IMG/VR virus record: IMGVR_UViG_3300025392_000466
Coordinates: 1 to 52,421 of that record
Direction: 5' to 3' (one strand)
DNA from: a virus
Taxonomy: Duplodnaviria > Caudoviricetes
DNA: 52,421 nucleotides
In this document: in pieces, positions 956-52,421 of the stretch
How positions within the stretch are numbered: the first letter of the stretch is position 1
How the letters are laid out: each line of letters begins with the position of its first letter
The notes under the pieces: model-generated
What the model was told of the DNA's origin: nothing
Databases searched by the model: none
The model's input: only the letters and a program-made list of their open reading frames with translations
Translations under genes and position numbers: made by a program

Positions 956-957
956 AT

Positions 958-2898: not shown

Positions 2899-5682
2899 TT
2901 ATTCTCCTAGTTTGTATTGTTCATCAACCATTCGTTGCCATTTTGCGTCACTACCAAGACCTCTCAATGCACGGCGATTATCAACAACCTCTTGGTTTTT
3001 ATAAACTTCTTTTGATTCATAGAATTTTGCATCCACCAAAGTAACTTTTGTATAAGCATCATAACCTTTTGGCTGTGTGGCAATACTAGCAATATCAATA
3101 CCATTAGCAACTTCATTTGGTTGAACATTGCGTTTAATCATGCCGTCTTGTGTTTGTTCTGCACCTTGTAATGCCAAAAACGCTTGAGCATTCATGTAGT
3201 CACTTAATACACTTCTAGTACCGACTTTCATAGTTTCAACTTTAGGCACCTCAACTTCTGTTAAAGCAACAATGTTAGTTTTCTTCAAACTGTCTAAGTT
3301 TGTTTGCACAGTAATAGAGTAATCAACAAAAGAACTTGATTGAGTATTTACTGGTTGTGGTGGTGGAACATATTGTGATATAACAACTTCATTCTGTGTG
3401 GGTTGATAAGATTGTTGTTGAACAGTATTAACCATGGCAACTTGAGTTTGCTCAAATGTTGTTTGCACTTGTTTAGGTGGTTCCACGGTAGTTGCAACCA
3501 TAGTCTGTTGCACTACAACTGGTGTAAAATCTTGTTGTTTTGGTGCAACTGGTGGTAAACTTGTGGTCTGTAACTGTTGTGTATTTACTTGCACAAATTC
3601 CTGTTGTTTTGGTGCAACTGGAGGCAGACTTGATACTTGCATTTGTTGCATGTTTACTTGCAAAACTTCCTGTTGTTTATTTGGTGTAGGTAAATTCTGT
3701 GATTCGTTTTGTTGTGCAAACGTCATGGTTGTTTGTGCACTTGTCGAAGTTGTATTTCTAACTGGTGGCAATGAACTGGCAGTTTGTGTATTATTGGTTG
3801 CGGTAGTTGTTGCAACAGAATTTTCCATTGAACGTTGATTGTTAACAGAAACTACACTGGTTTGAGCATTACCTTGTAGAGTAACCACACTTGTTGTTGA
3901 TTGACTGGTTGTTGTAGTTTTACTTGAACTGGATGTTGCAGTTGCTGTGGCCATACTTGCAGAAATACTTGTTGCTTGTGCTGAACCAGCAACAGTCAAT
4001 GCTGTTGTTAATGCTTGTGAAGTTGCACTTGCTGCGGCATCATTTGCTTGTGCAACTACTGCTGCCGTTGTGGCTGATACTTTGGCCTGTTCTTTTGACA
4101 CAACACTCATGGCCAATGCTGAAGGTCCACTACTTTTACTTTCACTTGGTCCAGGTGGTTTTGTAGAACCTGCAACTTGAACATCACCGGGTTTAGGTTG
4201 TGGATTTGTTGCTGATGGTGCAGCACTTGTCACTGGTGCCGCTGGAGGTGGTGCACCATTTTGTGCAACGGCTTGCTGTTGCTGTTGTGGTTGTTGCTGT
4301 GAATTTGGATCAGGTGCAGGACCTGCCGCTTGTTGTGTGGGATTTCCACCTTGTTGTGGAGAATTATTTGCGGTTTGTGGTGCAGCTTGTGCGACTGGTG
4401 GTTGGTCTGCCGCTGGCGGAGGTTGTGTTGCAGCCGCCAAAACTGTTGATGTTTGTGCAGTAACTGCCGCAGATACCGCAGCCAATGCAGCCGCTTGAGC
4501 CGCTGCCTGTTGTTGCTGTTGTAATTGCGCTTGTTGAGCAGCATACGCTTTTGCATAACCTGTACATGTTGTACTACTCAATGGGTTAAGTGTACATGCA
4601 TCAGGCATAACAATCAAACTAGCAGTCATATTATAGATAGATGCTCCTGCACCATCTACACCTGCAAGAAAATTAAACGTGCCCATCGTATTGGTGTTAA
4701 TTGCAGAAGGTGTTAACAGTTGATAACTAGCAGTCTGTGCGCCTTGAGTTGGACCATTTAATTGACGAGTGAAACCACCAACACCGGCAGTTATATTGTT
4801 TCCTATGCCAACAGTAACATAACCTGATGTTGCTGTCGTTGGTAAATTATATGTGTAGCCGTAGTTAATACCATACAAGGACAAACCAGAACCACTGTTA
4901 GATAGTGCAGTTGAAATAGCAAAAGAATTGTCTACTGGATTACCAGGAGTTGCAACCGCATTTGGATTTGGTACTAAGTTTGCACTTGTAAGTAGACTAC
5001 TAAAACCAGGACAAGTTGTTGAATATGCAGGATTTGCTGAACAAGGATTGACACCATACAATAGTGAGAAACTATTCACATGAACTCTTGGACCATAAAA
5101 ACCAGCCCAATAGTTCTGGTCTTTACCAGTAAAACTAACTGTTACAGAACTGGCTTCACTAACATCATACTTATTGTTGAATAGTTGAGTTCCGTTGTAT
5201 TGTTGGAAATTACCGGCACCAGTGTCTATACCATTGTAGTTGTAGTTGAAACTTTCCAATGTTTGACCATTGGTGCCCTTTAGACTAACATTACCTGTTA
5301 TCGTGCCTCTATTTCCACCACCACTACTCAACTCATTGTTGATACCCCAAGAATAGTTATATCCTTCTAACTGAACACCAGAACCAGCATTAGCCAATGC
5401 CTTAGAGATGGCAACAGTTTGACTCACCGTTTGTGGCGTATAACCAAAAATGATATTGCCAGTACTTGGATTGTAAGCGGGTGTATAACCACCACTATAA
5501 CCCCCTGCCGAACCGGTAACAGTATTGTTCCAGGGAAGTCCTCCACCTAAGTTGAGAATGTTCCCTGTACTGTTTAATGGTTCACCGGAAGTTACATTAA
5601 CATTCTGTGCATTAGTGGCTAAAGATGCGGTAAGTAATAAAACCCAGCAAACTACCGATGCCAATATTTTTGTAATAGTCAT
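2899..5682 (-). CDS. large exported protein: beta-rich N-half, Q/A/P/S/T low-complexity stalk
   Basis: 927 aa; signal peptide; two CxxNPxxSTTCxG motifs; SLPPVAPKQQ repeats. Confidence 0.85.
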   Translation of the reverse strand: MTITKILASVVCWVLLLTASLATNAQNVNVTSGEPLNSTGNILNLGGGLPWNNTVTGSAGGYSGGYTPAYNPSTGNIIFGYTPQTVSQTVAISKALANAGSGVQLEGYNYSWGINNELSSGGGNRGTITGNVSLKGTNGQTLESFNYNYNGIDTGAGNFQQYNGTQLFNNKYDVSEASSVTVSFTGKDQNYWAGFYGPRVHVNSFSLLYGVNPCSANPAYSTTCPGFSSLLTSANLVPNPNAVATPGNPVDNSFAISTALSNSGSGLSLYGINYGYTYNLPTTATSGYVTVGIGNNITAGVGGFTRQLNGPTQGAQTASYQLLTPSAINTNTMGTFNFLAGVDGAGASIYNMTASLIVMPDACTLNPLSSTTCTGYAKAYAAQQAQLQQQQQAAAQAAALAAVSAAVTAQTSTVLAAATQPPPAADQPPVAQAAPQTANNSPQQGGNPTQQAAGPAPDPNSQQQPQQQQQAVAQNGAPPPAAPVTSAAPSATNPQPKPGDVQVAGSTKPPGPSESKSSGPSALAMSVVSKEQAKVSATTAAVVAQANDAAASATSQALTTALTVAGSAQATSISASMATATATSSSSKTTTTSQSTTSVVTLQGNAQTSVVSVNNQRSMENSVATTTATNNTQTASSLPPVRNTTSTSAQTTMTFAQQNESQNLPTPNKQQEVLQVNMQQMQVSSLPPVAPKQQEFVQVNTQQLQTTSLPPVAPKQQDFTPVVVQQTMVATTVEPPKQVQTTFEQTQVAMVNTVQQQSYQPTQNEVVISQYVPPPQPVNTQSSSFVDYSITVQTNLDSLKKTNIVALTEVEVPKVETMKVGTRSVLSDYMNAQAFLALQGAEQTQDGMIKRNVQPNEVANGIDIASIATQPKGYDAYTKVTLVDAKFYESKEVYKNQEVVDNRRALRGLGSDAKWQRMVDEQYKLGE

Positions 5683-7330
5683 TGTCTTTTACCACTTCTT
5701 CCATTTTAGGTAATTTATCTTCGTTTTCTTCCCATGCTTGTTTAGCGGCTTCACCGATTTTACCTTCATAGGGGCAAGGCGTACCTGCTGCCATCATAGC
5801 GTCAAATACACGGCGGTCTTGACACATTGTAGCAACAGCAGCAACTTTCATACCCATATCATAAAGTGTTTTGGATAGTTTCAAACGTTCGCAATTTAAG
5901 TCACGGTTTGTACCACCATTACTTACACCAAAGATTTGTGTTTGAACTGCACTAGAAGTACCTGTTGTACATAGGTCAGCATTACCACCACTCATCATAG
6001 CAGGACTTGCTGCTGTTGGTGGAGGTTGAATAACTTTCTGTGTAATATTGCTATTGTTGTTATTGTTGTTAGTCAATGTACCACTTTGGATGTTTTGATT
6101 GACGTTATTGTTTGAACTTGTGCTTTGGTTAACGTTGTTATTGTTATTTGTGGCAGTAGAAGTTGAAACATTATTGTTATTGTTAGTCATGCTACCACTT
6201 TGAATGTTTTGGTTAACATTGTTACTGGTGCTTGTATTAGTATTAACATTGGTATTAGCATTGGTGTTGGTGCTAACACTATTGTTAGTATTTGTGCTGT
6301 TAACAGTACTAGCATTGACATTATTGTTATTGTATGTCATAGTGCCACTATTCACATTATTATTGGTGTTAACATTAGTGTTTGTAGCAGTGCTGGTAGA
6401 TGCATTAACATTGTTATTGTTATAATTCATGGTGCCAGAATTGACGTTATTGTTAGTATTAACGTTTGTATTTGTAGCGGTACTTGTACTAGCATTGTTA
6501 TTATTGTATGTCATTGTACCAGAGTTTACGTTATTGTTGGTATTGACATTTGTGCTAGAACTTGTTGAAGCATTAACGTTGTTATTGTTGTAGTTCATTG
6601 TACCACTGTTCACATTGTTATTTGTGTTGACATTGGTTGCAGAACTTGTTGATGCATTAACGTTATTGTTATTGTAGGTCATGGTACCAGTGTTAACATT
6701 GTTGTTTGTGTTAACATTGGTGTTACTTGAACTACTTGTGGTAGCATTGTTATTGTTGTATGTCATAGTACCACTATTGATATTGTTATTTGTATTAACG
6801 TTAGTGTTACTATTGGTTGAACTGCTGGTACTAGCATTGTTATTGTTATAAGTCATTGTACCGGTATTAACGTTATTGTTTGTATTAACGTTTGTTGCGG
6901 AACTTGTTGAACTTGACGTATTAACATTGTTGTTATTGTATGTCATTGTACCGGAGTTGACGTTATTGTTATTATAAGTCATTGTGCCAGTATTGACATT
7001 GTTGTTATTATTTGTTACAGTACCGCTTTGAATGTTATTGTTGGTATTCACAGCAGTTGCGGTAGATGTTGAAACGCTGTTATTGTTATTTGTACTGGTA
7101 CTGTTTATTGTACTGGTGCTAGTAGCATTACTGGTACTAACATTATTGTTGTTACTATTGACCGTACTTAGACTGGTCGATGTGCTGTTGGTGTCAACCA
7201 GGGAACTAGAACTGTATGCACCACCAGTTAAACTAGAAGATTGGTTGATTAGTGTTGGGTCGGATTGGGCGATAGAGACAATACTTAGTGCTGATAGTAT
7301 GCCGGCCGCAAGGATTTTTCTAAAATTCAT
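5612..7330 (-). CDS. exported Asn-rich repeat protein with Cys-containing C-terminal domain
   Basis: Start reassigned to ATG 7330 (SD GAAGGA; signal peptide MNFRKILAAGILSALSIVSIA); GTMTYNNNN repeats; CERLKLSKTL..MGMKVAAV..MCQD..GTPCP domain; hydrophobic C-tail. Confidence 0.85.
   Translation of the reverse strand: MNFRKILAAGILSALSIVSIAQSDPTLINQSSSLTGGAYSSSSLVDTNSTSTSLSTVNSNNNNVSTSNATSTSTINSTSTNNNNSVSTSTATAVNTNNNIQSGTVTNNNNNVNTGTMTYNNNNVNSGTMTYNNNNVNTSSSTSSATNVNTNNNVNTGTMTYNNNNASTSSSTNSNTNVNTNNNINSGTMTYNNNNATTSSSSNTNVNTNNNVNTGTMTYNNNNVNASTSSATNVNTNNNVNSGTMNYNNNNVNASTSSSTNVNTNNNVNSGTMTYNNNNASTSTATNTNVNTNNNVNSGTMNYNNNNVNASTSTATNTNVNTNNNVNSGTMTYNNNNVNASTVNSTNTNNSVSTNTNANTNVNTNTSTSNNVNQNIQSGSMTNNNNNVSTSTATNNNNNVNQSTSSNNNVNQNIQSGTLTNNNNNNSNITQKVIQPPPTAASPAMMSGGNADLCTTGTSSAVQTQIFGVSNGGTNRDLNCERLKLSKTLYDMGMKVAAVATMCQDRRVFDAMMAAGTPCPYEGKIGEAAKQAWEENEDKLPKMEEVVKDNDYYKNIGIGSLLGFITYRIFSH
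6040..7170 (-). repeat. Degenerate tandem coding repeats (mostly ~26-30 aa units)
   Basis: Nine (S/T)GTM(T/N)YNNNN copies plus three variants, mostly linked by S/T-rich and NVNTNNNVN tracts. Confidence 0.9.
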
Positions 7331-7381
7331 TTCATTTCCTTCGTTATTTTTATAGAATAATGGCAAAAATGACACAAGTAG

Positions 7382-7410
7382 TTGCCTACTCAACTGAATT
7401 CATATATAAT
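7382..7410 (+). promoter_or_regulatory. sigma70-type promoter for the replication operon
   Basis: TTGCCT-17 bp-TATAAT. Confidence 0.55.
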
Positions 7411-10311: not shown

Positions 10312-11346
10312 ATGAGTATATTAGACAAAATCAAGAAGAATAGTAGCATTAAAGATTCTGCTATTCTATCCAAATCAAAGTTCTTCACACAGAAGGACAT
10401 GATTCCAACCGCAGTACCGGCAATCAACATTGCTTTATCTGGAAAGTTGGATGGCGGTTTAACACCAGGTCTTACAATGTGGGCAGGTCCATCAAAACAC
10501 TTTAAGACTGCTTTTTCACTTTTGATGGCCAAATCTTACATGGACAAATACGAAGATGCTGCACTTCTTTTTTATGATTCTGAGTTTGGTACTCCTCAAT
10601 CTTATTTTGATTCCTTTGGTATTGATACTGACCGTGTTCTACATACTCCTCTTACTGATATAGAACAATTGAAGTTTGACGTAATGAAGCAATTGACTGA
10701 ATTGGAACGTGGTGAACACCTCATCATTGTTATTGATTCTATCGGCAACTTGGCATCCAAGAAAGAAGTTGAAGATGCATTATCTGAGAAGTCTGTGGCA
10801 GATATGTCAAGAGCAAAACAAGTCAAGAGTTTGTTCCGTATGGTGACACCACACTTGTCTTTGAAAGACATTCCAATGATTGTTGTGAATCATACTTACA
10901 TGGAAATTGGTATGTTCCCTAAAGCAATCGTTGGTGGTGGCACAGGTTCATATTACTCTGCCGATAACATCTTTATTCTTGGTCGCCAGCAAGAAAAAGA
11001 AGGTACAGAAATAACTGGTTATAACTTTATTATCAATGTAGAAAAGTCCCGTTATGTCAAAGAAAAATCTAAAATCCCTGTTTCAGTATCTTTTGACGGT
11101 GGTATTAGCAAGTGGAGCGGCCTATTGGATATCGCTCTTGAATCCAAACATGTGGTAAAACCAAGTAATGGTTGGTACAGTAAAGTAAATTCTGAAACTG
11201 GTGAAGTTGAAGAAAAGAAATACCGCGAGAAAGATACCAATACATCGGAGTTCTGGACTTCAATCTTGGCAGACCAAACATTCCAAGAATATGTGTCAAG
11301 CAAATATGGTGTTGCTACTGGTAACATCATGCAGGAAGAAGAATGA
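10312..11346 (+). CDS. uvsX: RecA-like recombinase UvsX
   Basis: AGPSKHFKT Walker A, YDSEFG, IDSIGNLASKKE. Confidence 0.97.
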   Translation: MSILDKIKKNSSIKDSAILSKSKFFTQKDMIPTAVPAINIALSGKLDGGLTPGLTMWAGPSKHFKTAFSLLMAKSYMDKYEDAALLFYDSEFGTPQSYFDSFGIDTDRVLHTPLTDIEQLKFDVMKQLTELERGEHLIIVIDSIGNLASKKEVEDALSEKSVADMSRAKQVKSLFRMVTPHLSLKDIPMIVVNHTYMEIGMFPKAIVGGGTGSYYSADNIFILGRQQEKEGTEITGYNFIINVEKSRYVKEKSKIPVSVSFDGGISKWSGLLDIALESKHVVKPSNGWYSKVNSETGEVEEKKYREKDTNTSEFWTSILADQTFQEYVSSKYGVATGNIMQEEE

Positions 11347-11669
11347 TAGAAGGTGTGGATTACTGTTTCATTTACCCTAAAGGTGATGAGACTATAACCC
11401 ACATCAAACTACTTAATGGTAGTTACAAGGATGTGGTGTTCAAATATGGTAAAGTTAAAATAACGGAAGAAGTTGACGGACCCCATTTACATTTTGCTTT
11501 TGATGTGTTAGAATCACCAATCGTGAAGCCTAAAAAACTTATGGATGATGCCAAATTCAAAAACTATCTTGGTGATATGTTGGTTGAATTGATGAGTGAC
11601 AATGTTGATGGGGATATTATAGATGAAACTAGAACAAACGATACTGAAGAACCTGATTTACTCAGATGA
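11343..11669 (+). CDS. 40: head vertex assembly chaperone (gp40-like)
   Basis: Synteny uvsX-40-41; size and YKDVVFKYGKV pattern. Confidence 0.65.
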   Translation: MIEGVDYCFIYPKGDETITHIKLLNGSYKDVVFKYGKVKITEEVDGPHLHFAFDVLESPIVKPKKLMDDAKFKNYLGDMLVELMSDNVDGDIIDETRTNDTEEPDLLR

Positions 11670-13005
11670 ATACCTGAGAAAAGTTCTTCCTTTCCTAAAG
11701 AGTGAATACTTCACCGACCGAGCAGAAAGACTAATTTATGATGAGATTAAATCATTCACAGAAACTTACAACAATGCACCAACGTCTGAAGCGCTTGTAT
11801 TGGCCATCCAAGAGAGGCGAAATCTCACAGATGCAGAAGTGGAAAAGTGTCAAACTACTATCCAAGAAATTGAGAAAACTAAAGGAGAGAAATCCCAAAT
11901 TCAATGGCTTACTGACAAAACCGAACAATTCTGTCAAGAAAAGGCCATCTACCAGGCAGTATTGGGGAGCATTTCTATTCTTGAAGGAAAAGACAAAACG
12001 CACGACAAAGGTCAGATTCCCAAAATACTATCAGACGCTTTAGCCGTAACTTTTGACACTTCAGTTGGCCACGATTATTTGGAGAACAGTGATGAACGAT
12101 ATGAATTCTACCACAGACACGAAGAACGAATCCCGTTCGACTTGGATTACTTCAACAAGATTACAAAAGGTGGATTACCTGGTAAAACTCTCAATATCGC
12201 TCTGGCTGGTACTGGTGTCGGTAAGTCTCTTTTTATGTGTCACGTTGCCGCTGGTGCTATGTCTCAGGGTCGTAATGTTCTCTACATCACAATGGAGATG
12301 GCTGAAGAAAAGATTGCCGAACGTATTGATGCAAACCTCCTTAATGTTACGCTGGATGATTTAACAAGTCTTCCAAAGGACATGTATGACAAGAAGGTTG
12401 CGAAACTGAAAGCAAAGACTACAGGCAAATTGATTATCAAAGAGTATCCAACCGCATCGGCATCCGCAACACACTTTAGGTCCTTATTGAATGAACTCAA
12501 TCTTAAAAAATCATTTCGTCCTGACATTATCTTTATTGATTATCTCAATATATGCTGTAGTTCTCGTATTAAAGCAGGAGCCAACATCAACTCCTACACC
12601 TACGTTAAGTCAATTGCAGAAGAACTGCGTGGCCTTGCCGTTGAATACGGAGTTCCAATTGTATCTGCTACACAAACAACACGTTCAGGCTTTACCAGTT
12701 CCGATCCCGGACTGGAAGACACAAGCGAGTCTTTTGGTTTGCCCGCTACCGCTGACTTGATGTTTGCTTTGATTACGTCCGAAGACTTGCAAGAACTTGG
12801 ACAAATCATGGTGAAACAATTGAAGAATCGTTACAATGACCCTACAATGTATAAACGATTCACCGTTGGTGTTGACCGTGCTAAGATGAAATTGTATGAT
12901 GTTGAACAATCTGGTCAAGATGGTTTGGTTGATGCAGGTGTGGTTCAAGCCGCAACAAATGTAAAGAAACCTGGTAAAAAATCATTTGATGGATTCAAGG
13001 TATAA
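11623..13005 (+). CDS. 41: replicative DnaB-like helicase (gp41)
   Basis: AGTGVGKS, ITMEMAEE, IDYLNIC, SATQTTR, SESFGLPATAD, KQLKNRY. Confidence 0.97.
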   Translation: MKLEQTILKNLIYSDEYLRKVLPFLKSEYFTDRAERLIYDEIKSFTETYNNAPTSEALVLAIQERRNLTDAEVEKCQTTIQEIEKTKGEKSQIQWLTDKTEQFCQEKAIYQAVLGSISILEGKDKTHDKGQIPKILSDALAVTFDTSVGHDYLENSDERYEFYHRHEERIPFDLDYFNKITKGGLPGKTLNIALAGTGVGKSLFMCHVAAGAMSQGRNVLYITMEMAEEKIAERIDANLLNVTLDDLTSLPKDMYDKKVAKLKAKTTGKLIIKEYPTASASATHFRSLLNELNLKKSFRPDIIFIDYLNICCSSRIKAGANINSYTYVKSIAEELRGLAVEYGVPIVSATQTTRSGFTSSDPGLEDTSESFGLPATADLMFALITSEDLQELGQIMVKQLKNRYNDPTMYKRFTVGVDRAKMKLYDVEQSGQDGLVDAGVVQAATNVKKPGKKSFDGFKV

Positions 13006-13028: not shown

Positions 13029-13778
13029 ATGGCACAACAAGGTTTTCAGTATGAGGTTAATGCATGTGATGTGTTAAAGCCAATGGGATTTGTACCTAAA
13101 GATTTTAGACCTGCTGGTGCCGGTCACAACCAACCAGACTTGATGTTGTTATATAAGGGCAAAGAAGCTGGTTGTGAATTAAAAATTACAGCCGCCTCGG
13201 CAGGTTCATTAGTATTAAAATATAATGGAACAAATAAAAGAAATCCTTGGATGTTCGGTAAGATTGATGCATCTGATGAAGAAAAAATCTTCATTCGTGA
13301 TTTAGCTGAAGAAATCGGTCTTTTTTCTTTAATCAAAAAACAATGGAAAGAAGTTCCATTCAAACGTGAAGATAAAGATGCATTATGGAAAGCTACAGCA
13401 GGCAAGTTGACAAAGAAACAACAATATGAAAGAGACCGTGACACTTTTCCAGACATTCGTGGTGAGATTCCCGCAACAAAGATTGAAGAATACTATAATA
13501 AGAAAGATACATACTATGTAAATGTTGGAACTCATGGTTTTTATTTGATGGGTAGTAAAAATCCATTAAAGTTGGAGAATGTGCCATCATTTGGTTCTTC
13601 TGCTAAGGCCACATATAGAGCGAGAGTTCAGTATAAAGGTTCAGACAATTATCAGTTCACTTTTGAGATGCAATTTTCTATTCCATCTGCAAGTAAATCT
13701 GAGTACAATATAGCACCGGTAGATGGAAAAACGGTTAGAATTTTAGAAAATAAATTAAATTTGAGTTGTTTTATTTAA
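13029..13778 (+). CDS. PD-(D/E)XK nuclease-like protein
   Basis: GFQYE...PDL...CELK motif order; resembles 20578..21618. Confidence 0.6.
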   Translation: MAQQGFQYEVNACDVLKPMGFVPKDFRPAGAGHNQPDLMLLYKGKEAGCELKITAASAGSLVLKYNGTNKRNPWMFGKIDASDEEKIFIRDLAEEIGLFSLIKKQWKEVPFKREDKDALWKATAGKLTKKQQYERDRDTFPDIRGEIPATKIEEYYNKKDTYYVNVGTHGFYLMGSKNPLKLENVPSFGSSAKATYRARVQYKGSDNYQFTFEMQFSIPSASKSEYNIAPVDGKTVRILENKLNLSCFI

Positions 13779-13793: not shown

Positions 13794-14495
13794 ATGACAG
13801 CAACAGTGATTATACCAACAACAGGCACACCAGACCTGAAAAAAGCAATTGAAAGTGTTCTCTCGCAAACATACCTAACAACTTGTTATGTTGTATGTGA
13901 CGGTGAACAAAACCGTGGTAAAGTTAATGTTATCACCAGTGAGTATGGTGATAAAGTTAAAGTGGCATACTTACCAATCAATGTTGGTGCAAATGGTTAC
14001 TATGGACACCGTGTATATGCCGCATTCACACACCTAGTCAATACCGAATATCTTTTATATTTGGATCAAGATTGTTACATGGACAAAAACCATGTGTTCA
14101 CACAAATTGAAAACATCAGAAAGAAAAAACTAGACTGGTCCTATTCATTGAGAAAGATTGTAGACAAGGATGGTAACTATCTCTGCAATGATGACTGTGA
14201 ATCCTTGGGTAAATGGAAATGTTTTCAGGATTACCATCATATAGACACAAATTGCTATTGCCTTAAAACAGAAATTGCGATAAGATTGGCAAGTGCATGG
14301 CATGGTGGATGGGGACAAGATAGGGTATTTCTAAATGTTCTATCTTCACATTTTACAAACTATGATTGCACAGGTGAATATACAATGAACTATAAACTTG
14401 CTGGTAATGAAGGTTCTGTTAAACCAGATTTCTTCTTGCACGGTAATGAAGTGATGAATAATCGTTATGGAGAAAAGTTGCCGTGGAGAAAATAA
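13794..14495 (+). CDS. glycosyltransferase family 2
   Basis: TVIIPT...AIESVLSQ...VVCDG...YLDQD (DxD). Confidence 0.9.
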   Translation: MTATVIIPTTGTPDLKKAIESVLSQTYLTTCYVVCDGEQNRGKVNVITSEYGDKVKVAYLPINVGANGYYGHRVYAAFTHLVNTEYLLYLDQDCYMDKNHVFTQIENIRKKKLDWSYSLRKIVDKDGNYLCNDDCESLGKWKCFQDYHHIDTNCYCLKTEIAIRLASAWHGGWGQDRVFLNVLSSHFTNYDCTGEYTMNYKLAGNEGSVKPDFFLHGNEVMNNRYGEKLPWRK

Positions 14496-15241
14496 TTAAC
14501 AAGCATGATTGGTACAAGATATCACAAGATTTCTTAAATGCAGAACCATTTCATCATGCAGTGATTGATAACTTTTTTGTTGAAGAAATTGCTCGTAGTA
14601 TCTTTGATGGCATGCCAGGATATGATGAAAACACAGATGCAAAGTATGACAATGCAATTGAAAAGAAACGCACGATACAAAACTGGACCAAGTTTTCTAA
14701 AAATGTATATAAGGCAATGTCGTGCCTTGTAAACGAACCTTTTGTTGGTAAACTTGCATATTTGGCTAATGATTTTGATTTGGTTCCTGATTATGGTTTA
14801 CATGGTGGTGGTATTCACATGCACCAAGCCGGTGATTACTTAAATGTTCACCTTGATTATGATATTCATCCTAAAATGGACATAAGGCGTAAGTTAAATC
14901 TTATCGTTTATCTAAATCCAAATTGGAAGAAGTCTTGGGGCGGTAACATAGGCCTTTGGTCACATGATGAAGAAACACAACAACCGAAGAAATTGGTCAA
15001 GTCTATTTGGCCAAAGTTCAATCGTGCTGTATTGTTTGATACCACACAAAATTCTTGGCATGGTGTAACTGAAGGTATTACTGCACCTGAAGGACAATAT
15101 AGAAAGAGTTTAGCAATCTATTATCTTGTTCCAGCAGATGACATAGATAATAAGAGACAGAAGGCTCTGTTCGTTCCACGTGATGAGCAAAAAGGTGATG
15201 ATGGTGTTATGGACTTGATTAAGACTAGGTCAGGATATTGA
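14483..15241 (+). CDS. 2OG-Fe(II) oxygenase
   Basis: HLD, NLIVYLN, FNRAVLF, SWHGV, RKS motifs. Confidence 0.9.
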   Translation: MEKIINKHDWYKISQDFLNAEPFHHAVIDNFFVEEIARSIFDGMPGYDENTDAKYDNAIEKKRTIQNWTKFSKNVYKAMSCLVNEPFVGKLAYLANDFDLVPDYGLHGGGIHMHQAGDYLNVHLDYDIHPKMDIRRKLNLIVYLNPNWKKSWGGNIGLWSHDEETQQPKKLVKSIWPKFNRAVLFDTTQNSWHGVTEGITAPEGQYRKSLAIYYLVPADDIDNKRQKALFVPRDEQKGDDGVMDLIKTRSGY

Positions 15242-15242
15242 A

Positions 15243-16091
15243 ATGAAGAATTTAATTATTGGTGGTTATACAAATTACGGTATCAATCAACTTAAACCTT
15301 GGGTATTGTCTGCACTAGAAGTTGCAGGAGATGATACTGATGTTGTATTGGTTGCAGGTAATACAACACAAGCCACGGTTGATTGGCTGATTAAACAAGG
15401 TGTATTTGTTGTACCTATGAAGATGGTACAAAACATTCCACCTCATGTGTTGCGTTTCTTGTCAATTTATGATTACTTGTATTCTAATTGGCAAAACTAT
15501 GAGTATGTTGTGACTACAGATGTGAAGGATGTTTACTTTCAATCTAGTCCTTTTGACATAATGAAAAGTATGGAAAATCTTGGAAACAATCTTGTAATTG
15601 CATCTGAAGGATTGAAATACAAAGATGAGCCATGGGGTGATGATAACCTCAAACAAGCATATGGTTCTTATGTTTATGAACAATTCAAAGACAACGAAAT
15701 CTTCAACGTTGGAACATTCGGTGGTACCTCCGAGTATGTAAAGGATATGGTGTTCAACATTTTCACCAATGCAACCAACAGGCCAATTCCTATCTGCGAC
15801 CAAGCGGTGTTCAATGTTTTAATCAATACACAACCATTCAAAGACATTACACAAACAACCGTTGATTGGGCTTGTGAGGCCGGCACGGTTGTAGACCCAT
15901 CTAAAATTGATTACTTTAGACCAAACTTGTTGTGTGACGAACCAACAGTAAAAGATGGCTTGGTCTATTACCGGAATCAGTTATTTCCAATCGTACACCA
16001 ATATGACCGTGTACCAGAATGGAAGAAGTTTGTCCAAGAAAAATATGGACAAGACAATGAATCGCAAATGTTTATCTATAGGACCGCATGA
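15243..16091 (+). CDS. GT-A-fold glycosyltransferase-like protein
   Basis: TDVKDVYFQ, NVGTFGG, DQAVFN, HQYDR motifs. Confidence 0.7.
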   Translation: MKNLIIGGYTNYGINQLKPWVLSALEVAGDDTDVVLVAGNTTQATVDWLIKQGVFVVPMKMVQNIPPHVLRFLSIYDYLYSNWQNYEYVVTTDVKDVYFQSSPFDIMKSMENLGNNLVIASEGLKYKDEPWGDDNLKQAYGSYVYEQFKDNEIFNVGTFGGTSEYVKDMVFNIFTNATNRPIPICDQAVFNVLINTQPFKDITQTTVDWACEAGTVVDPSKIDYFRPNLLCDEPTVKDGLVYYRNQLFPIVHQYDRVPEWKKFVQEKYGQDNESQMFIYRTA

Positions 16092-16657
16092 TGAGTGATA
16101 CAATTACCTTTAATACAGTGACACAAGCTTTTGGAGTTCAACAAATGTTCAAATGTTCAGGATATGGCCTTGGTGAGATGATTAAAGACATGTCATCGGT
16201 CAAAGGTTTAGAAATTGGTTGTGACATTGGTGATACCACCAATTTCCTATTGGACATTAATCCCAATTTAGATTTAACATCAGTTGATCCTTATGAAAAT
16301 TATGTTGATTGGAATGGAAGACCATTGAATGAACGCCAACATGTTTTTGAAACCATGACCAATCGTATGGAAAAATTTAATGAAAGGTTTCACCATATTC
16401 ATAGGACATCCGATGATGCAGTTGAATTATTCTTAGATGAAGAATTTGACTTTATCTTTATTGATGGTTTACACACATATGACCAATTAACCAAAGATTG
16501 TGCAAACTATTATTCTAAGTTGAAGACTGGTGGAATTTTTGCTGGCCACGATTTCACCGCAATTGAAGGTGTCAATAGAGCCGCAAAAGAGTTTGCCGCA
16601 AAAATGGGCAAAGAAATTTTAACAACCGAATGTGATGTGTGGTATTGGATCAAATGA
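16088..16657 (+). CDS. class I SAM-dependent methyltransferase (Methyltransf_24-like)
   Basis: LEIGCDIG, VDPY, DFIFIDGLHTY, GGIFAGHD. Confidence 0.9.
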   Translation: MMSDTITFNTVTQAFGVQQMFKCSGYGLGEMIKDMSSVKGLEIGCDIGDTTNFLLDINPNLDLTSVDPYENYVDWNGRPLNERQHVFETMTNRMEKFNERFHHIHRTSDDAVELFLDEEFDFIFIDGLHTYDQLTKDCANYYSKLKTGGIFAGHDFTAIEGVNRAAKEFAAKMGKEILTTECDVWYWIK

Positions 16658-17343
16658 AAAATTGTATAGTATTATCCGGTCAATACAGAACTTTTGACAA
16701 AACTTGGGAAAACATTAAGACATACATTGATGCAAATGAAATGGATGTTTATTGTCATTTGTGGTCAACCGATGAACAAGAAATTAAAAATGTTCAAGAA
16801 CGATTGAATCCCACAAAGTTCTTGGCTGAAGACTTTTCACAATATGAAAATGTTTTCATGGATATTGAAAAACGTGCACATGCCGCCAATCCAAAACCAA
16901 AAACTATTGATAGCATTTCCAAAAACGCATCAATGAACTATGGCAGATTCAAAGCTTTTGGTTTGATTGATGACATTGAATATGAGAATCTTTCATATTG
17001 CAGGTATGATTTAGTTTTTGACCCTCCTTTCAAATTTCAAGAGGTTGGTTTTATTGTTACTCCTATGGAAGAATCATACAACTTGATTTCTGACATTTTT
17101 GCTGTTATGCCATTCAAATGGGCTAACGCTTATTTCTTGTATAACAACTATGAACACCTACATTCAACTCAATTTGAGCCTGAGTTTGAAGACTGGCTCA
17201 GAAATGTAAAAAGATATCCAGAACATGATATCATAACACACAAAGAACAGAGATATTGTCCACACATGATGCTATTGAGAAACTTATTTCTTAAAGGTGC
17301 ACCATTTGATATCGTTAACATTCCAGTATATCTACAAAGATGA
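16654..17343 (+). CDS. putative glycan-modifying protein
   Basis: ATG 16654 in ATGA overlap; CIVLSGQYR...DVYCHLW...RYD; paralogous to next gene. Confidence 0.6.
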   Translation: MKNCIVLSGQYRTFDKTWENIKTYIDANEMDVYCHLWSTDEQEIKNVQERLNPTKFLAEDFSQYENVFMDIEKRAHAANPKPKTIDSISKNASMNYGRFKAFGLIDDIEYENLSYCRYDLVFDPPFKFQEVGFIVTPMEESYNLISDIFAVMPFKWANAYFLYNNYEHLHSTQFEPEFEDWLRNVKRYPEHDIITHKEQRYCPHMMLLRNLFLKGAPFDIVNIPVYLQR

Positions 17344-18029
17344 AAATAGCATTATGTTTCACTGGTCAGGCCAGGTCATTCCAAAAAGGATTTGAATACT
17401 ATAAGAAGAATCTATTGGACCATTTTGATGTGGATGTGTATATTCACACATGGCAATTTGATGGTGAAAAAGAACTTGAAAATTTGTATAAGCCATTGCG
17501 TATGTTGACAGAAGAAACTTTGGTGGTTGATGCAGACACAAAGTACACTAATACACCAAACCCACAAAAATATCCACCAAGGTTCACTTATTCGGCACTA
17601 TATTCAATTAATGAATGTCGTATGTTGATGATGAGTTCTGGAATTGAATATGATTGGGTCATTAAGACACGAACCGACTATGCATTGAATGTTCAGATTC
17701 CTTTTGAACAACTTGATAACACCAAGTTATACATTCCAAATTGCAGAATGGTTCCTGAAAGAGATTTTGGCAACGACCAGTTTGCTTTTAGTTCACAAAG
17801 CAACATGGACAAATATATGTCTACGTTCCAGAATATGGATAAGTATTATGAAGCTGGTGCACAGTATATTGGTGAAAATATGATGCAAGCCAACTTACAT
17901 GAGCATAACTTACACGGTGAAAATCTTGTGTATGTTAATATGAATAATCCATTTCCGCCTGGTGCACACAATGGCACATGGCACTCTTTGATTCGTGATG
18001 ATTATGACAACTGGACCAAGAATAGTTAA
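17340..18029 (+). CDS. putative glycan-modifying protein
   Basis: KIALCFTGQAR...DVYIHTW...YDWVIKTRTD...NDQFAF. Confidence 0.65.
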   Translation: MKIALCFTGQARSFQKGFEYYKKNLLDHFDVDVYIHTWQFDGEKELENLYKPLRMLTEETLVVDADTKYTNTPNPQKYPPRFTYSALYSINECRMLMMSSGIEYDWVIKTRTDYALNVQIPFEQLDNTKLYIPNCRMVPERDFGNDQFAFSSQSNMDKYMSTFQNMDKYYEAGAQYIGENMMQANLHEHNLHGENLVYVNMNNPFPPGAHNGTWHSLIRDDYDNWTKNS

Positions 18030-18765
18030 GAAGTTAAGTGGCCATTCAGGTAGCGAAATCTATCTGATGGAAAATTCTAATGGTCTATTTGTAAGAAAAA
18101 TTGGCAACACAGAAAGAAACAGGAAAAGACTAATACCTCTAAGTGCGGTTGGTTTTCCTGTTCCTAAAATCTACAATGTTGATGGTGATTCTTTTGACAT
18201 GGAATACTTCCATGGTCTAGACATAAAGAATTATTTGGTGTCACATAACACCAATCAGTTAGAAGAATTCTTATTCAACACACTAACAAAATTAAAAAGT
18301 ATATGTGTGGAAGAAACAAAAGACTTCACCGAAATCTATCACCAAAAACTTGCTTGGATGGATACTTCAACCGAGGACTTTCCTTTCACCAAGCAACAAC
18401 TTATTGATAAGTTGCCTAAGATTTTACCACACACATCTTACCTTGGCGACTTGACATTGGAGAACATAATCTATACAATAGACGGTTTCAAGATAATTGA
18501 TCCTGTTACTATTGAATATGAATCCTATGTGTTTGACATAGCAAAGCTTAGACAAGACTTGGAATGTCGCTGGTTTCTCAGGAAAGAGACAACCAAACTT
18601 GGTGCAAAACTGCACACAATTCAAAACAAACTGTTTGAAGATTTTCCCGAAGCAAACAACGATTACCTTTTGATTCTAATGTTGTTGAGGGTATACCTAC
18701 ATACAACAAAAGGTGATTTAGAATACAACTTTATAATGGATGAAATAAAAAGATTATGGAAATAA
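17995..18765 (+). CDS. aminoglycoside/choline kinase-like phosphotransferase
   Basis: LSGHSG loop, MEY, GDLTLENII, IDP, DIAKL; start could be an adjacent ATG. Confidence 0.75.
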   Translation: MMIMTTGPRIVKKLSGHSGSEIYLMENSNGLFVRKIGNTERNRKRLIPLSAVGFPVPKIYNVDGDSFDMEYFHGLDIKNYLVSHNTNQLEEFLFNTLTKLKSICVEETKDFTEIYHQKLAWMDTSTEDFPFTKQQLIDKLPKILPHTSYLGDLTLENIIYTIDGFKIIDPVTIEYESYVFDIAKLRQDLECRWFLRKETTKLGAKLHTIQNKLFEDFPEANNDYLLILMLLRVYLHTTKGDLEYNFIMDEIKRLWK

Positions 18766-21618: not shown

Positions 21619-21625
21619 ACAAACA

Positions 21626-21661: not shown

Positions 21662-21675
21662 GTCTAAAGGTAAAC

Positions 21676-36380: not shown

Positions 36381-37363
36381 TTAAAAAAGCACAAAACGAT
36401 GTAACATCGGATCGTAGTTACTTCAAACCATTTAACTATGCTTGGGCTTATGATGCTTGGTTGAAACATGAACAATCACATTGGTTACATACAGAAGTGC
36501 CAATGATGGAAGATGTAAAAGATTGGAAAAAGAAATTAACGGATAGTGAAAAGAATTTCTTAACACATATTTTCCGTTTCTTCACACAAGGTGATATTGA
36601 CGTTGCTGGTGGTTATGTTAAGAATTATCTACCATACTTCCCACAACCAGAAATGAGAATGATGTTGTTGGGTTTTGCTGCCCGTGAAGCATTACACGTT
36701 GCCGCATACTCACACTTGATTGAAACTTTGGGTTTACCAGAAACAACATACAATGAATTCTTAGAGTATGCTGAAATGAGAGAGAAACATGATTATGTTA
36801 TGGACATCTCAAAGCAAAATACAACTAAAGAGAATACTGCAACCCATATCGCCGTGTTCAGTGCTTTTACTGAAGGTATGCAGTTGTTCTCCTCTTTCAT
36901 TATGTTGTTGAACTTTCCTCGTCACGGCAAGATGAAGGGTATGGGACAAATTGTTACATGGTCTATTGTTGATGAAACACAACACGCAGAGAACATGATT
37001 AAATTGTTCCGCACTTACATTCAAGAAAATCCAGAAATCTGGAATGATGAATTGAAGTCACGCATTTATACCATTGCTGAAAAGATGGTTGAGTTAGAAG
37101 ATAAGTTCATTGATTTGGCTTTTGCAATGGGTGAAATGGAAGGACTCAAAGCAGAGGATGTTAAGAAATACATTCGTTACATTGCTGACCGTAGATTGAT
37201 TTCTTTGTCACTCAAGGGCATCTTTAAGGTTAAGAAGAATCCTTTACCATGGGTTGAAGAAATGATTAATGCACCTACGCACACAAACTTCTTTGAAAAT
37301 CGTGCAACCGATTATGCTAAAGGTGCTTTGTCTGGGGATTGGTCCGATGTTTGGGCCAAATGA
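36377..37363 (+). CDS. nrdB: class I ribonucleotide reductase beta subunit
   Basis: FFTQGD, EALH..AY, EGMQLFSSF, DETQH, NFFE..ATDY. Confidence 0.96.
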   Translation: MIKKAQNDVTSDRSYFKPFNYAWAYDAWLKHEQSHWLHTEVPMMEDVKDWKKKLTDSEKNFLTHIFRFFTQGDIDVAGGYVKNYLPYFPQPEMRMMLLGFAAREALHVAAYSHLIETLGLPETTYNEFLEYAEMREKHDYVMDISKQNTTKENTATHIAVFSAFTEGMQLFSSFIMLLNFPRHGKMKGMGQIVTWSIVDETQHAENMIKLFRTYIQENPEIWNDELKSRIYTIAEKMVELEDKFIDLAFAMGEMEGLKAEDVKKYIRYIADRRLISLSLKGIFKVKKNPLPWVEEMINAPTHTNFFENRATDYAKGALSGDWSDVWAK

Positions 37364-37392: not shown

Positions 37393-37581
37393 ATGACAAA
37401 CAAAGTAATTTCAGGAGAATGTTTAGAATGTGAATCAACTTATGCCGTTGAGTATGTTGAACAATTAGTATCACAACCTTTGCCAGAATATTGCCCTTTC
37501 TGTGGTGATCCAATCGAAGAATTATCCGAAGAATATATAGAGGATGATGACTTAGATGAAGATGACCTCAAATGGGAATAA
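37393..37581 (+). CDS. small zinc-ribbon protein
   Basis: CLEC...CPFC, acidic tail. Confidence 0.75.
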   Translation: MTNKVISGECLECESTYAVEYVEQLVSQPLPEYCPFCGDPIEELSEEYIEDDDLDEDDLKWE

Positions 37582-38024
37582 ACTGGCAATATAATGATAC
37601 TGATTTCACAGAAGACCAAATTGGTGATAGTTACGGATTTGTATATCTGATAACAAACCTAGAGAACAATAAAAAGTATATCGGCAAGAAACTTTTCTGG
37701 TTCTCTAGGACCAAAACGGTAAAAGGTAAACGTAAAAGAGTGAAAGTCCCATCGGACTGGCAAACTTATTACGGAAGTAGTGACAAACTGCAAAAAGATG
37801 TTATACTATACGGACAGGATAAATTCCGCCGAGAGATACTACATCTTTGCAAGACAAAAGGTGAGTGTAGTTACCTTGAAGCGAAAGAGCAATTCGCAAA
37901 TAATGTAATGGAAAGTGATGAGTATTACAATGACTGGATCATGGTCAGAGTAAGAAAGTCTCATATTAAGGACTACAATGACCGAACTAACAGAACTCAA
38001 ACAACTATTGAACAACGATTGTGA
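37572..38024 (+). CDS. GIY-YIG endonuclease (T4 endonuclease II-like)
   Basis: GFVYLITN...KKYIGKK, YYGSS, YYN. Confidence 0.75.
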   Translation: MGINWQYNDTDFTEDQIGDSYGFVYLITNLENNKKYIGKKLFWFSRTKTVKGKRKRVKVPSDWQTYYGSSDKLQKDVILYGQDKFRREILHLCKTKGECSYLEAKEQFANNVMESDEYYNDWIMVRVRKSHIKDYNDRTNRTQTTIEQRL

Positions 38025-45664: not shown

Positions 45665-45756
45665 TAATAACCTTTATAATGGGCCACGATAATAGCAGGA
45701 CCAATCATACAGGCGAGAATAACTGCTGAGGAGATAATGTCTTGGATGAGTTTCAT
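45664..45756 (-). CDS. 30-aa hydrophobic peptide
   Basis: MKLIQDIISSAVILACMIGPAIIVAHYKGY; SD AAAGG; promoter directly upstream. Confidence 0.55.
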   Translation of the reverse strand: MKLIQDIISSAVILACMIGPAIIVAHYKGY

Positions 45757-45786
45757 TGTGGTACCTTTGTTTGTTTGTATGGATGG

Positions 45787-45815
45787 ATTATAACCGATCC
45801 ATGGCCGATCGGCAA
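45787..45815 (-). promoter_or_regulatory. sigma70-type promoter (leftward)
   Basis: TTGCCG-17-TATAAT. Confidence 0.65.
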
Positions 45816-45853
45816 CCAATACTTGACCATTCCGGTGGTGTATTCTCGGGGGC

Positions 45854-45881
45854 TTGTAAAATCCTCCGGTTCTGGTATAAT
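45854..45881 (+). promoter_or_regulatory. sigma70-type promoter (rightward)
   Basis: TTGTAA-16-TATAAT with GGTTCTGG spacer shared with other early promoters. Confidence 0.55.
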
Positions 45882-45958
45882 AGGATCCAGATTCGAAGCC
45901 AAGCGGGATGGACACGGAGGCTGCCTGAGTGTAATCCGGAGAAAACCTCGTTTGGACC

Positions 45959-46024
45959 ATTATAACATAGAATCCACGGCGGTGTCAACCAAAATATTTT
46001 CGAGAATGTTGCGAAAAAACAACG
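45959..46024 (-). promoter_or_regulatory. early promoter (leftward) with upstream palindrome
   Basis: TTGACA-18-TATAAT; TGTTG-N8-CAACG at 46007-46024. Confidence 0.7.
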
Positions 46025-46098
46025 GAAAACCTCTGAAAATGCTTGCCAACCTTCGGAAAATTTTGCTCGGAATCGCGGTAAGACACTTAGTGCCAATG

Positions 46099-46150
46099 TT
46101 ATCCACAGGTTCCGATTGATTCCGAAAGACTTATTCACAGGTTATCCACA
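46099..46150 (+). promoter_or_regulatory. DnaA-box cluster
   Basis: TTATCCACA (46099, 46142) and TTATTCACA (46131), same orientation. Confidence 0.7.
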
Positions 46151-47390: not shown

Positions 47391-48140
47391 ATGCACTTAT
47401 TATCTACTGGTAATCCAAAAACGCTTAAAGGTATGTCACAAGGTTATAATACCTATATTCTCCATTTGGCTCCTTATACATTATCTGGCCATAATACTTG
47501 CCCAAAAGCAACCGCTGGCTGTATTATCTCCTGCCTTAATACTGCCGGTCGTGGTGGTATGTTTAAAAAAGGTGAAAATACCAATACAATTCAAAAGGCC
47601 CGTATTCGCAAAACACAATTATTTTATAATAACCGTGACGAATTCTTTTCATTATTGATTAAAGATATTCTCTTGGCTATTAAACAATCAGAGAAAATCG
47701 GTTTAATTCCCGTTTTTCGTTTAAATGGTACCAGTGATATTGCTTTTGAGAAATATGGTTTCACATATCAAGGTGTGTTTTATTCTAATATCTTTGAATT
47801 GTTTCCTAATGTCCAATTCTATGATTATACCAAGATTCTCGGTCGTAAGGTTAATGATATTAAGAATTATTCATTGACATTTTCTGCCGCTGACGGTAAT
47901 GATATTGACGTGTTAAATGCTATTAAGCAAGGTTATAATATCGCTACTGTATTTGGTATTAAGAAAACTAGCCCAATGCCTGATTATTATAATGGTTTAC
48001 CAGTATTTAACGGTGATGAGTCCGATTTGCGTTTTCTTGATCCAAAAGGTGTTATCGTTGGTTTATATGCAAAAGGTAAAGCAAAAAAAGATACTACTGG
48101 TTTTGTAAAATATCCTACCATTATGTTACAGGCAGCATAA
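47391..48140 (+). CDS. phage Gp88-like protein (Cys-rich, radical-SAM-like)
   Basis: CP.A..GC...CL..AGRG, RLNGTSD, QFYDYTK, GDESDLRF motifs. Confidence 0.7.
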   Translation: MHLLSTGNPKTLKGMSQGYNTYILHLAPYTLSGHNTCPKATAGCIISCLNTAGRGGMFKKGENTNTIQKARIRKTQLFYNNRDEFFSLLIKDILLAIKQSEKIGLIPVFRLNGTSDIAFEKYGFTYQGVFYSNIFELFPNVQFYDYTKILGRKVNDIKNYSLTFSAADGNDIDVLNAIKQGYNIATVFGIKKTSPMPDYYNGLPVFNGDESDLRFLDPKGVIVGLYAKGKAKKDTTGFVKYPTIMLQAA

Positions 48141-49949: not shown

Positions 49950-50609
49950 ATGCCTAATTGGAATTATAATGTTGTCGAGGTCAGCCATTCACAAAAGAAA
50001 ATGATGGCCAAATTCAAAAAAGGTTGTAAGAATGGCCTTTTTACCGAATTCTTGCCCGTACCAGAAGAACAAAAGGAAAATTGGTATGAATGGTGCGTGA
50101 GTAATTGGGGCACCAAATGGGATGTAACCGAGGTTGATTGTATTATCGAGGGTAATTCCACAAAGGTAACATTTGATACTGCATGGGCACCTCCAATTGC
50201 ATTTTATGAACATTTGATTGAATTAGGCTTTACAGTCACCGCTTATTACTATGAGCCTGGTATGGCATTTTGTGGCATCTATGATGAATTAGGTGATGCA
50301 TATTATGAAATTGGTGATTTGAATAGTGATGAGGTAGAGGAAACTATTCCAAAAGAATTGGATGAAATGTTTGGCATTTCTGAAGAAAAGGCATCATGGG
50401 AAGATGAAGAAAATCAAGAAATTGAATTGGAAGATGCCTTTGATGATGAAATGACCGAAGAAGAAATTGAAGAAAACCTTGCCCAATTAAACGAAGCATT
50501 TGCTGAATTGGAAGCGGAACAAAATTCCGCCAAAGGTATTGCACGCCAAGAAATTCTATTGGCCATTGATAGCCTTAAAGCCGCATTGGCCGCTTTGGAT
50601 AGTGAATGA
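49950..50609 (+). CDS. DUF1281/YubB ferredoxin-like domain protein with acidic tail
   Basis: MPNW, WYEWC..NWGTKWD, FDTAWAPP, YYEPGM.FCG. Confidence 0.75.
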   Translation: MPNWNYNVVEVSHSQKKMMAKFKKGCKNGLFTEFLPVPEEQKENWYEWCVSNWGTKWDVTEVDCIIEGNSTKVTFDTAWAPPIAFYEHLIELGFTVTAYYYEPGMAFCGIYDELGDAYYEIGDLNSDEVEETIPKELDEMFGISEEKASWEDEENQEIELEDAFDDEMTEEEIEENLAQLNEAFAELEAEQNSAKGIARQEILLAIDSLKAALAALDSE

Positions 50610-52163: not shown

Positions 52164-52421
52164 ATGATTACTTTGAATTTAAAAACTGGCACCATTGTTT
52201 TACCTAATGGATTTGATGTTGATTTGTCTGACCCAGAAAATTGTGTGATTAAGGAATCTGGTTCAGTTGATCTCGATAAGAAACCAGAATATGTTTCCGA
52301 TACTATTGCAGACCTGAAACACGGTGATGTTGCTCGACAAGTCCGTGCTAAGTTTGGTCGTGTAGGTAATACAGATATTGTTACAGCACATAGTTATAGC
52401 ACAGTCTGGTCGGCATTCAAT
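52164..52421 (+). CDS. hypothetical protein, truncated by window end
   Basis: Open from ATG 52164 to end of window. Confidence 0.55.
   Translation, partial: MITLNLKTGTIVLPNGFDVDLSDPENCVIKESGSVDLDKKPEYVSDTIADLKHGDVARQVRAKFGRVGNTDIVTAHSYSTVWSAFN

Follow-up and report, generated by a model that had tools for sequence, protein, structure and literature searches.

The DNA analysed here is the entire IMG/VR record IMGVR_UViG_3300025392_000466 (52,421 bases; hereafter the window). Judged by its genes, it is part of a freshwater myovirus that is T4-like (Kyanoviridae-like), and CheckV puts its completeness at about 31%. Its GC content is 38.0%, against the approximately 36% assumed in an initial annotation that was made from the sequence alone. 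Our subject is the tetranucleotide GATC, which in this window is retained almost exclusively where a G precedes it on one strand or the other, that is, within GGATC or its complement GATCC (flanked sites); GATC with two non-G flanks (unflanked sites, HGATCD in degenerate notation) is nearly absent. The features that define this pattern, none of which is assigned to a strand, are the following.

1–52,421, no strand: near-absence of HGATCD (2 sites, against 81.5 ± 7.2 expected)
4,308–51,870, no strand: the 40 retained GGATC/GATCC sites (49.2 ± 5.5 expected)
45,807–45,810, no strand: an exception, CGATCG, within an open reading frame (ORF) at 45,742–46,119
52,269–52,272, no strand: an exception, TGATCT, 150 bases short of the contig end
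51,711–51,714, no strand: the sole AGATCC/GGATCT site, a member of a depleted class

Exact counting finds 42 GATC in the window, the first at position 4308; 40 of them belong to GGATC or GATCC. The initial annotation had arrived at about 42 and roughly 40 and had named the sites at 45807 and 52269 as exceptions; the recount returns just those two. Markov models of order 0, 1 and 2 predict 180, 159 and 166 GATC, respectively, while a codon-aware null (300 shuffles of synonymous codons within genes) predicts 130.7 ± 8.6. The shortfall is concentrated in the unflanked sites, for which the lowest of the shuffles still contained 56 (Poisson P = 1e-32) and the order-1 Markov model predicts 102. The number of flanked sites is not significantly reduced relative to the codon null (P = 0.10), and the probability of finding at least 40 of 42 GATC flanked is 4e-15. 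A codon-aware count of NGATCN hexamers had been proposed as the check on this pattern; it places the unflanked sites far below expectation rather than near it. Depletion extends to all six classes in which both flanks are other than G, whereas a site with a G flank, on whichever strand, is spared.

The retained sites comprise 10 GGATCC, 19 GGATCA/TGATCC, 10 GGATCG/CGATCC and a single GGATCT/AGATCC. The last class is depleted (1 observed, 14.5 expected; P = 8e-6), a rule that the initial annotation missed, and the five-base word AGATC occurs only twice in the window, against 70.6 expected. Because AGATCC is depleted despite its CC, a CC/GG flank does not by itself preserve a site in this phage. 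The loss of GGATCT/AGATCC is limited to the window phage and its nearest kin (in L001–L003, one of 11 GATC is of this class), which implies that sites containing AGATC are under an additional pressure. The data rule out a five-base target recognized on a single strand: TGATCC contains TGATC and yet is not reduced. Both flanks matter, and what is called for is either a symmetric dimer that rejects a site with an outer G:C pair or a protection, set by one GGATC strand, that covers the whole site. The exception at 45807 lies in a stretch (about 44.3–47.2 kb) whose ORFs mostly lack counterparts in 80 related loci and in the related genomes G001 and G004, and it could plausibly mark a recently acquired segment in which purging is incomplete.

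Related phages were collected with the DNA polymerase of the window, one of several genes that place it among the T4-like phages.

23–1,382, plus strand: array of 10 tRNA genes, a large lytic phage context
7,754–10,303, plus strand: family B DNA polymerase of the T4 type, the query for collecting relatives
10,312–11,346, plus strand: UvsX/RecA recombinase (PF21134, PF00154)
11,623–13,005, plus strand: gp41-type replicative helicase, 61–64% identical to the helicases of cyanomyoviruses and of the Methylophilales phage Melnitz
16,088–16,657, plus strand: Methyltransf_24 ORF amid a glycosyltransferase/nucleotidyl-transferase cluster, the sole methyltransferase-like ORF in the window
47,391–48,140, plus strand: GP88-family protein (PF17338)

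T4 RNase H and ThyX are also encoded. The order polymerase, recombinase, helicase, primase, ribonucleotide reductase is that of Melnitz, and the replication genes are of the T4 type expected of T4-like myoviruses near the Kyanoviridae; the structural genes fall outside the window. The polymerase shares about 50% identity with its cyanomyovirus counterparts and 70–99% with those of 80 IMG/VR loci, the best of 592 confirmed stretches. Several of these relatives are complete genomes of 150–172 kb.

For the relatives, expectations were calculated from an order-1 Markov model rather than a codon-aware one; that this model is adequate is shown by an unaffected genome, G013, which contains 357 of 386 expected unflanked sites. 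The pattern is sharpest in G002 (complete, 168 kb), in which 153 of 154 GATC are GGATC or GATCC (unflanked 1 observed against 311 expected, flanked 153 against 160); G001 is similar (unflanked 9/312, flanked 204/168). Two other states occur among the relatives. Avoidance of all GATC is seen in G011 (L197–L205, 168.9 kb), with 2 sites against about 518 expected, and in G012, with 56 in all; little or no avoidance is seen in G013 and in G004 (unflanked 164/339). A census of 88 loci, each 12 kb or longer and together 1.57 Mb (including the same-contig pairs L007/L128, L011/L196 and L018/L177), assigned 31 to the pattern of the window, 6 to avoidance of all GATC, 25 to an intermediate state and 26 to no avoidance. 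Pooled over the 31 pattern-bearing loci, unflanked sites number 21 against 1149 expected, and the flanked classes are observed and expected as GG 69/70, GT 251/271, GC 88/102 and GA 112/193. On the polymerase tree the three states are intermixed, the all-GATC one being found mainly in basal branches; related phages thus differ in avoidance in the way that hosts differ in their restriction repertoires.

The most direct comparison is between G002 and its tree neighbor G005, which are 78.5% identical in nucleotide sequence over 89.6 kb and are in opposite states. Of the GATC of G005 at aligned positions, G002 retains 39 of the 95 that are flanked but none of the 95 that are unflanked (Fisher P = 3e-14); the flanked figure is approximately the expectation for a neutral four-base word at that per-base identity. 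The strong selection against GATC that had been proposed for the window, with its exemption of GGATC and GATCC, is thus seen directly in this pair, and the pattern is lineage-wide and maintained by selection. G001 and G005 come from one metagenome and yet differ in state, which excludes library or assembly artefacts. Host strains with differing restriction systems would yield such switches among close relatives and within one metagenome. That chance, codon usage or misassembly produced the pattern is accordingly a negligible prospect: it recurs in independent assemblies and departs from the codon null by the margin given above, although exceptions close to contig ends (TGATCT in the window; in G002 the single unflanked GATC, within the last 10 bases) hint that the ends are less reliable.

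Causes of GATC loss other than restriction are very improbable but deserve mention. The scarcity of GATC in enterobacteriophages is ascribed to Dam and MutH, and MutH cleavage of unmethylated phage GATC, or a context-dependent bias of mutation or repair, might be proposed here too; the commonest replacement of a G005 GATC in G002, GATC to GACC, is a transition, as a mutational bias could produce. However, a mutational bias would not spare sites by their flank on either strand, we know of no flank dependence of MutH that would exclude GGATC, and the state switches between close relatives and stands beside a dozen palindrome footprints typical of restriction.

The initial annotation attributed the exemption to a modification made by the phage, either of GGATC or of CC/GG dinucleotides, which would protect those GATC from a host enzyme. 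The footprint is compatible with such protection, and T4-like genomes contain many uncharacterized ORFs. Since the window holds only about 31% of its genome, the absence of a methylase from this phage rests on relatives with polymerases 73–81% identical to its own. A methylase search had been called for; it was run on those relatives, without finding the relevant families, and for the window phage itself could cover only the sequenced fraction. PF02086, PF01555, PF00145 and PF05869 had no match in five relatives (G001–G005, four of them at least 92% complete), PF02086 (D12-class methylases) none in G011–G015, and PF02384 (gamma-class N6), PF00303 (thymidylate synthase/hydroxymethylase) and PF01702 (TGT/DpdA) none in five records (the window, G001, G002, G003 and G005). 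In a search for MT-A70 the control was silent, so that it has no bearing on this family. Among the 50 of 85 predicted window ORFs that were scanned against Pfam, the sole methyltransferase is the Methyltransf_24 ORF in the sugar-gene cluster; the only thymidylate synthase of the window is ThyX, and its 2OG oxygenase belongs to the general families PF13640/PF13661, no search for Tet/JBP having been made.

Gene content was also contrasted between states. No gene was found that is present in all pattern-bearing genomes yet missing from the others, and the contrasts yielded no nuclease, methylase or inhibitor candidate; in the compared sequence of G002 and G005, no difference in methylases or nuclease inhibitors accompanies the opposite states. 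About 15–20 small or unannotated genes are common to G001 and G002 and missing from the GATC-free G011 and G012, as a modification gene might be, but the ten largest differential proteins, scanned against Pfam, are epimerases, a phosphoesterase, an amidotransferase-like protein and a protein with a chitinase-like domain, with no DNA-acting protein or nucleic-acid enzyme among them. The Methyltransf_24 gene (16088–16657) was rejected as the cause, being missing from pattern-bearing G001 and present in pattern-free G004. An ORF just after the helicase (13029–13778, 249 amino acids) has, by eye, a PD...E-x-K-like nuclease motif and occurs in G004 (78% identical) and seven loci; as a phage nuclease behind the pattern it was likewise discarded, because pattern-free G004 carries it and pattern-bearing G001 does not; Pfam and NCBIfam gave no match for it.

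The GP88 gene was a further candidate, at first correlated with the pattern (present in the window and G001–G003, missing from G004), yet G005 and the GATC-free G011 carry it as well. Among 80 GP88-carrying loci, 76 of them with enough sites, 35 have less than 10% of the expected unflanked GATC, 16 are intermediate and 25 have more than 35%. The GP88 protein contains a cysteine motif, C-x6-C-x3-C, and has no match in the PDB or NCBIfam, nor a solved relative there; a full-text literature search for 'PF17338' returned no occurrence. The family is shared with 238 mycobacteriophage records and with phages of Pelagibacter, Puniceispirillum, Caulobacter and the Rhizobium group, and the copy in Limnohabitans phage DC31 is 51% identical to that of the window.

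A general protection of CC/GG fares no better. GGCC and CCGG, which the initial annotation had called common, are indeed so in the window (CCGG 67 observed against 52–98 expected, GGCC 89 against 73–81), but the two are strongly depleted in none of the 31 pattern-bearing loci as compared with 5 and 2, respectively, of 57 others, a difference that is not significant. With AGATCC depleted despite its CC, modification of CC/GG dinucleotides is neither needed nor demonstrated. The avoidance, rather than protection, of CGCG and many other sites suggests that these phages rely on avoidance, and site avoidance this massive argues that the DNA of the window lineage is ordinary. With no DNA methylase, hydroxymethylase-family or TGT/DpdA gene in the relatives and no gene that tracks the pattern, we consider a phage-made modification unlikely. 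The evidence favors an unmodified phage that avoids sites over an exotic DNA modification, and the earlier reading is corrected to that extent.

GATC is not the only word missing from the window. Strong depletion is seen for AGCT (32 observed, 129 expected), TCGA (42/133), CGCG (2/37) and CGWCG (0/33), the last of which we take to be an Hpy99I-type word, as well as for CTGCAG (0/15), CTCTTC (1/21.5) and TTTAAA (10/36). Most of the other words depleted in the window are not avoided by G001 and G002; the window phage therefore appears to meet different restriction systems. Each complete genome has its own set: 5–14 of about 50 testable six-base palindromes are at or below 15% of expectation, many at zero. 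CGCG is absent from five of nine relatives (G002, G003, G011, G012 and G015), AAGCTT, TCATGA, TGCGCA and GCATGC are at zero among the footprints of G001, G002, G012 and G015, and in G015 every class that contains the five-base word GAGCT is at 0–2 against 16–61 expected. Two of these footprints are themselves degenerate: RCATGY in G002 and G012 (in G002, AA 0/83, GG 0/30, AG 0/100) and YACGTR in G001 (CC 1/21, TT 0/23, CT 0/44). They presumably correspond to NspI-like and BsaAI-like specificities, respectively, and their sequences read directly as putative degenerate Type II palindromes.

Outside the window lineage, the freshwater Limnohabitans phage DC31 (L305, positions 1–50000; 37% GC), which is unrelated to it and has a cultured host, and its relatives were examined as possible carriers of the same pattern. 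They show RGATCY instead: in DC31 the classes GG, GA and AA are at 0/3, 0/14 and 0/14 with the others normal (CGCG is at 2/25), and the same footprint, with GGATCC, GGATCT/AGATCC and AGATCT all at 0–1, occurs in three of seven DC31-like IMG/VR contigs (L306, L308 and L310). Variants of NGATCN restriction that differ in the outer base thus seem to circulate in lakes. The freshwater Synechococcus phage DSL-LC02 (Kyanoviridae) showed no GATC depletion over 41 kb.

With so many narrow footprints in the lineage, the window pattern could in principle be a sum of them, produced by BglII-, BclI- and PvuI-like enzymes together with enzymes for the mixed flanks. AGATCT, TGATCA and CGATCG are in fact individually avoided (0–2 each) in G004, G005 and G015, genomes that keep mixed-flank sites. 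This sum is nevertheless a still more remote prospect than Dam/MutH or mutational bias: the non-palindromic AGATCA, CGATCA and AGATCG are at 0–1 in G002 against 104, 52 and 37 expected, and at least three degenerate enzymes would have to act together in 31 of 88 loci.

Taken together, these observations make it highly probable that the footprint was imposed by restriction in the host and is not the result of phage modification. The DNA of the window phage would be unmodified, and selection by the host's restriction enzymes would strip it of their target sites; one such activity would cut GATC solely where neither strand reads GGATC, giving an effective recognition of HGATCD. In the form that we favor, the agent would be a host Type II enzyme, a symmetric dimer reading NGATCN whose own recognition sequence is the degenerate palindrome HGATCD, such that one outer G:C pair in either half-site spares the site. 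Two elements of this account are inferred: restriction as the agent of selection, and the context rule as a property of the enzyme itself. A single degenerate enzyme of this kind is preferred because it needs one assumption, has the same form as the sister footprints, and has an H/D precedent in Bsp1286I; three of the four G-flanked classes are at expectation and the six unflanked classes are empty or nearly so, as it predicts. We put it forward tentatively as the foremost candidate, at somewhat less than an even chance.

Several points weigh against this candidate. We know of no enzyme with the recognition sequence HGATCD, and the term 'HGATCD' was not found in a full-text literature search; no gene for such an enzyme was seen. 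The loss of GGATCT/AGATCC from the window (1/14.5; 0.58 of expectation for this class pooled over the pattern-bearing loci) does not follow from HGATCD and calls for a second pressure. In G003 and G015, AGATCT, TGATCA and CGATCG are at 0–1 and the mixed flanks are partly depleted, so that separate six-base enzymes are needed there. Finally, an HGATCD enzyme and a GATC enzyme acting alongside protective methylation of GGATC would leave the same footprint.

That combination is the most serious alternative and a real, if lesser, possibility. The hosts would have a GATC enzyme of the MboI/DpnII type together with a near-universal GGATC adenine methylase of the AlwI/EacI/GmeI type, which would shield both strands of GGATC sites, while other GATC would be exposed when the phage enters a strain with the restriction system. 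Plain avoidance of GATC does occur in this phage group (G011, Melnitz). Even hemimethylated GATC resists MboI. The crown of the polymerase tree has no well-sampled phage that loses GGATC along with other GATC, which lineage-wide protection of GGATC would predict as well as an HGATCD enzyme does. Methylases of the required kind exist: the available text of PMC3526280 describes two-domain fusions that make GG(m6A)TC and G(m6A)TCC, leaving the GATC core fully methylated, and that of PMC8919816 reports a methylated GATCC motif without a REBASE match in a marine gammaproteobacterial metagenome-assembled genome. On the other hand, two host features are needed, one of them near-universal without its partner nuclease; no locus shows the selective loss of GGATC that would be expected if some hosts had an AlwI-type nuclease; and the loss of GGATCT/AGATCC from the window is unexplained here also.

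Clues to the host are few. T4-like cyanophages nearly all carry psbA. This gene (PF00124) was missing from all five relatives searched, each at least 92% complete, and the host is therefore probably not a cyanobacterium. The ribonucleotide reductase of the window is closest to those of Alphaproteobacteria, at only about 50% identity, and its polymerase had no relative among genome contigs. Comparisons of the Melnitz methylase and S21 gave no useful clue, and an Atlas search for the host returned viral clusters. PQQ methanol dehydrogenase, a marker of T4-like phages of methylotrophs in Lake Baikal according to the available text of 10.1101/2020.04.02.019802, was not found in phages of the window lineage.

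Apart from the genes already listed, the window encodes several other proteins of note. Two very large ORFs on the minus strand (2899–5682 and 5612–7393) have signal-peptide-like starts and long low-complexity repeats, with asparagine runs of the unit NNNNVN(T/S)GTMTY and tracts rich in Q, A, P and T; they have no Pfam match, and homologues occur in G004 and in 8–14 related loci. Melnitz encodes curli genes (CsgF/CsgG/curlin-repeat), and on this ground the two ORFs may encode secreted repeat or amyloid-like proteins. The cluster at 13794–20470 comprises a family 2 glycosyltransferase, a 2OG-Fe(II) oxygenase, the Methyltransf_24 protein, a kinase-like ORF, a nucleotidyl-transferase/HAD phosphatase fusion and uncharacterized ORFs; it varies between relatives, and most of the Atlas clusters nearest to the fusion protein are viral. 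Several ORFs rich in lysine and histidine follow one another at 20578–28941, among them DUF6267 (E = 1e-91), DUF7207 and DUF6321 as well as a cytidylyltransferase-like ORF with a zeta-toxin/AAA-like domain; both G001 and G004 conserve them. Downstream of the ribonucleotide reductase genes (36368–37363) lies a SegE-like GIY-YIG homing endonuclease (37572–38024; E = 5e-42). The protein encoded at 49950–50609 has a strongly acidic C-terminal half with E/D runs, no Pfam or NCBIfam match and no counterpart in the relatives; some acidic phage proteins are DNA mimics that block restriction.

Phage genomes record the restriction enzymes of their hosts, and the record here is unusually sharp (1 unflanked site against 311 in G002) and specific. 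To our knowledge, its target rule, GATC minus GGATC, matches no known enzyme. We therefore think it reasonably likely that an abundant freshwater bacterial lineage holds an undescribed specificity, either a Type II endonuclease for HGATCD or a GGATC adenine methylase, solitary and present throughout the lineage, that protects just those sites from a GATC enzyme. If so, T4-like phages preying on those bacteria reveal in their genomes both that it exists and what it recognizes. With a dozen further footprints that switch over short evolutionary distances, these lake phages form a natural system in which viral metagenomes can be read for the restriction repertoires of hosts; the matching of footprints to methylomes could link phages to hosts, and new enzyme specificities could be sought in the same way.

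Of the cultured relatives, the nearest that was found is Melnitz (Kyanoviridae), which has the gene order of the window, a helicase 64% identical and a similar GC content (37%). It likewise avoids GATC (L238–L239; 8 sites in 82 kb against about 260–280) and CGCG (0 against 34), but, unlike the window phage, it avoids GGATC too (2 sites in the G-flanked classes against 85 expected), has a cytosine methylase annotated as HhaI-like, is marine, and has a known host. A T4-like replication module is also common to the window and to the phages with T4-type hypermodification or phage Dam methylation, from which the window lineage differs in that no hydroxymethylase-family, Dam or other DNA methylase gene was found in the relatives.

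Among bacterial systems, the AlwI/EacI/GmeI systems come nearest in sequence, as the exempt word is exactly GGATC/GATCC and AlwI-type methylases act on the adenine of both strands (available text of PMC3526280); they differ in that no such methylase was found in the phages and that GGATC is undepleted, so that there is no sign of an AlwI-type nuclease. The pattern also resembles the targets of Type II enzymes that read NGATCN, with its symmetric six-base site, GATC core and selective outer pair. Known enzymes for such sites include BstYI and XhoII (RGATCY), BglII (AGATCT), BclI (TGATCA) and BamHI (GGATCC), and Bsp1286I (GDGCHC) shows H/D degeneracy; HGATCD is unlike the NGATCN enzymes in accepting any outer pair but G:C, and it is read here from a footprint alone. 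Avoidance of restriction sites by phages, including the scarcity of GATC in enterobacteriophages, is textbook knowledge, and full-text literature searches found no description of a four-base core whose avoidance hinges on the outer pair, as it does here across a large uncultured clade. The window lineage resembles the known cases in that short palindromes are depleted beyond codon usage, differ between relatives and are accompanied by no modification genes; it differs in that avoidance of the four-base core depends on the outer pair, with any flank but G being purged over whole genomes of 168–170 kb.

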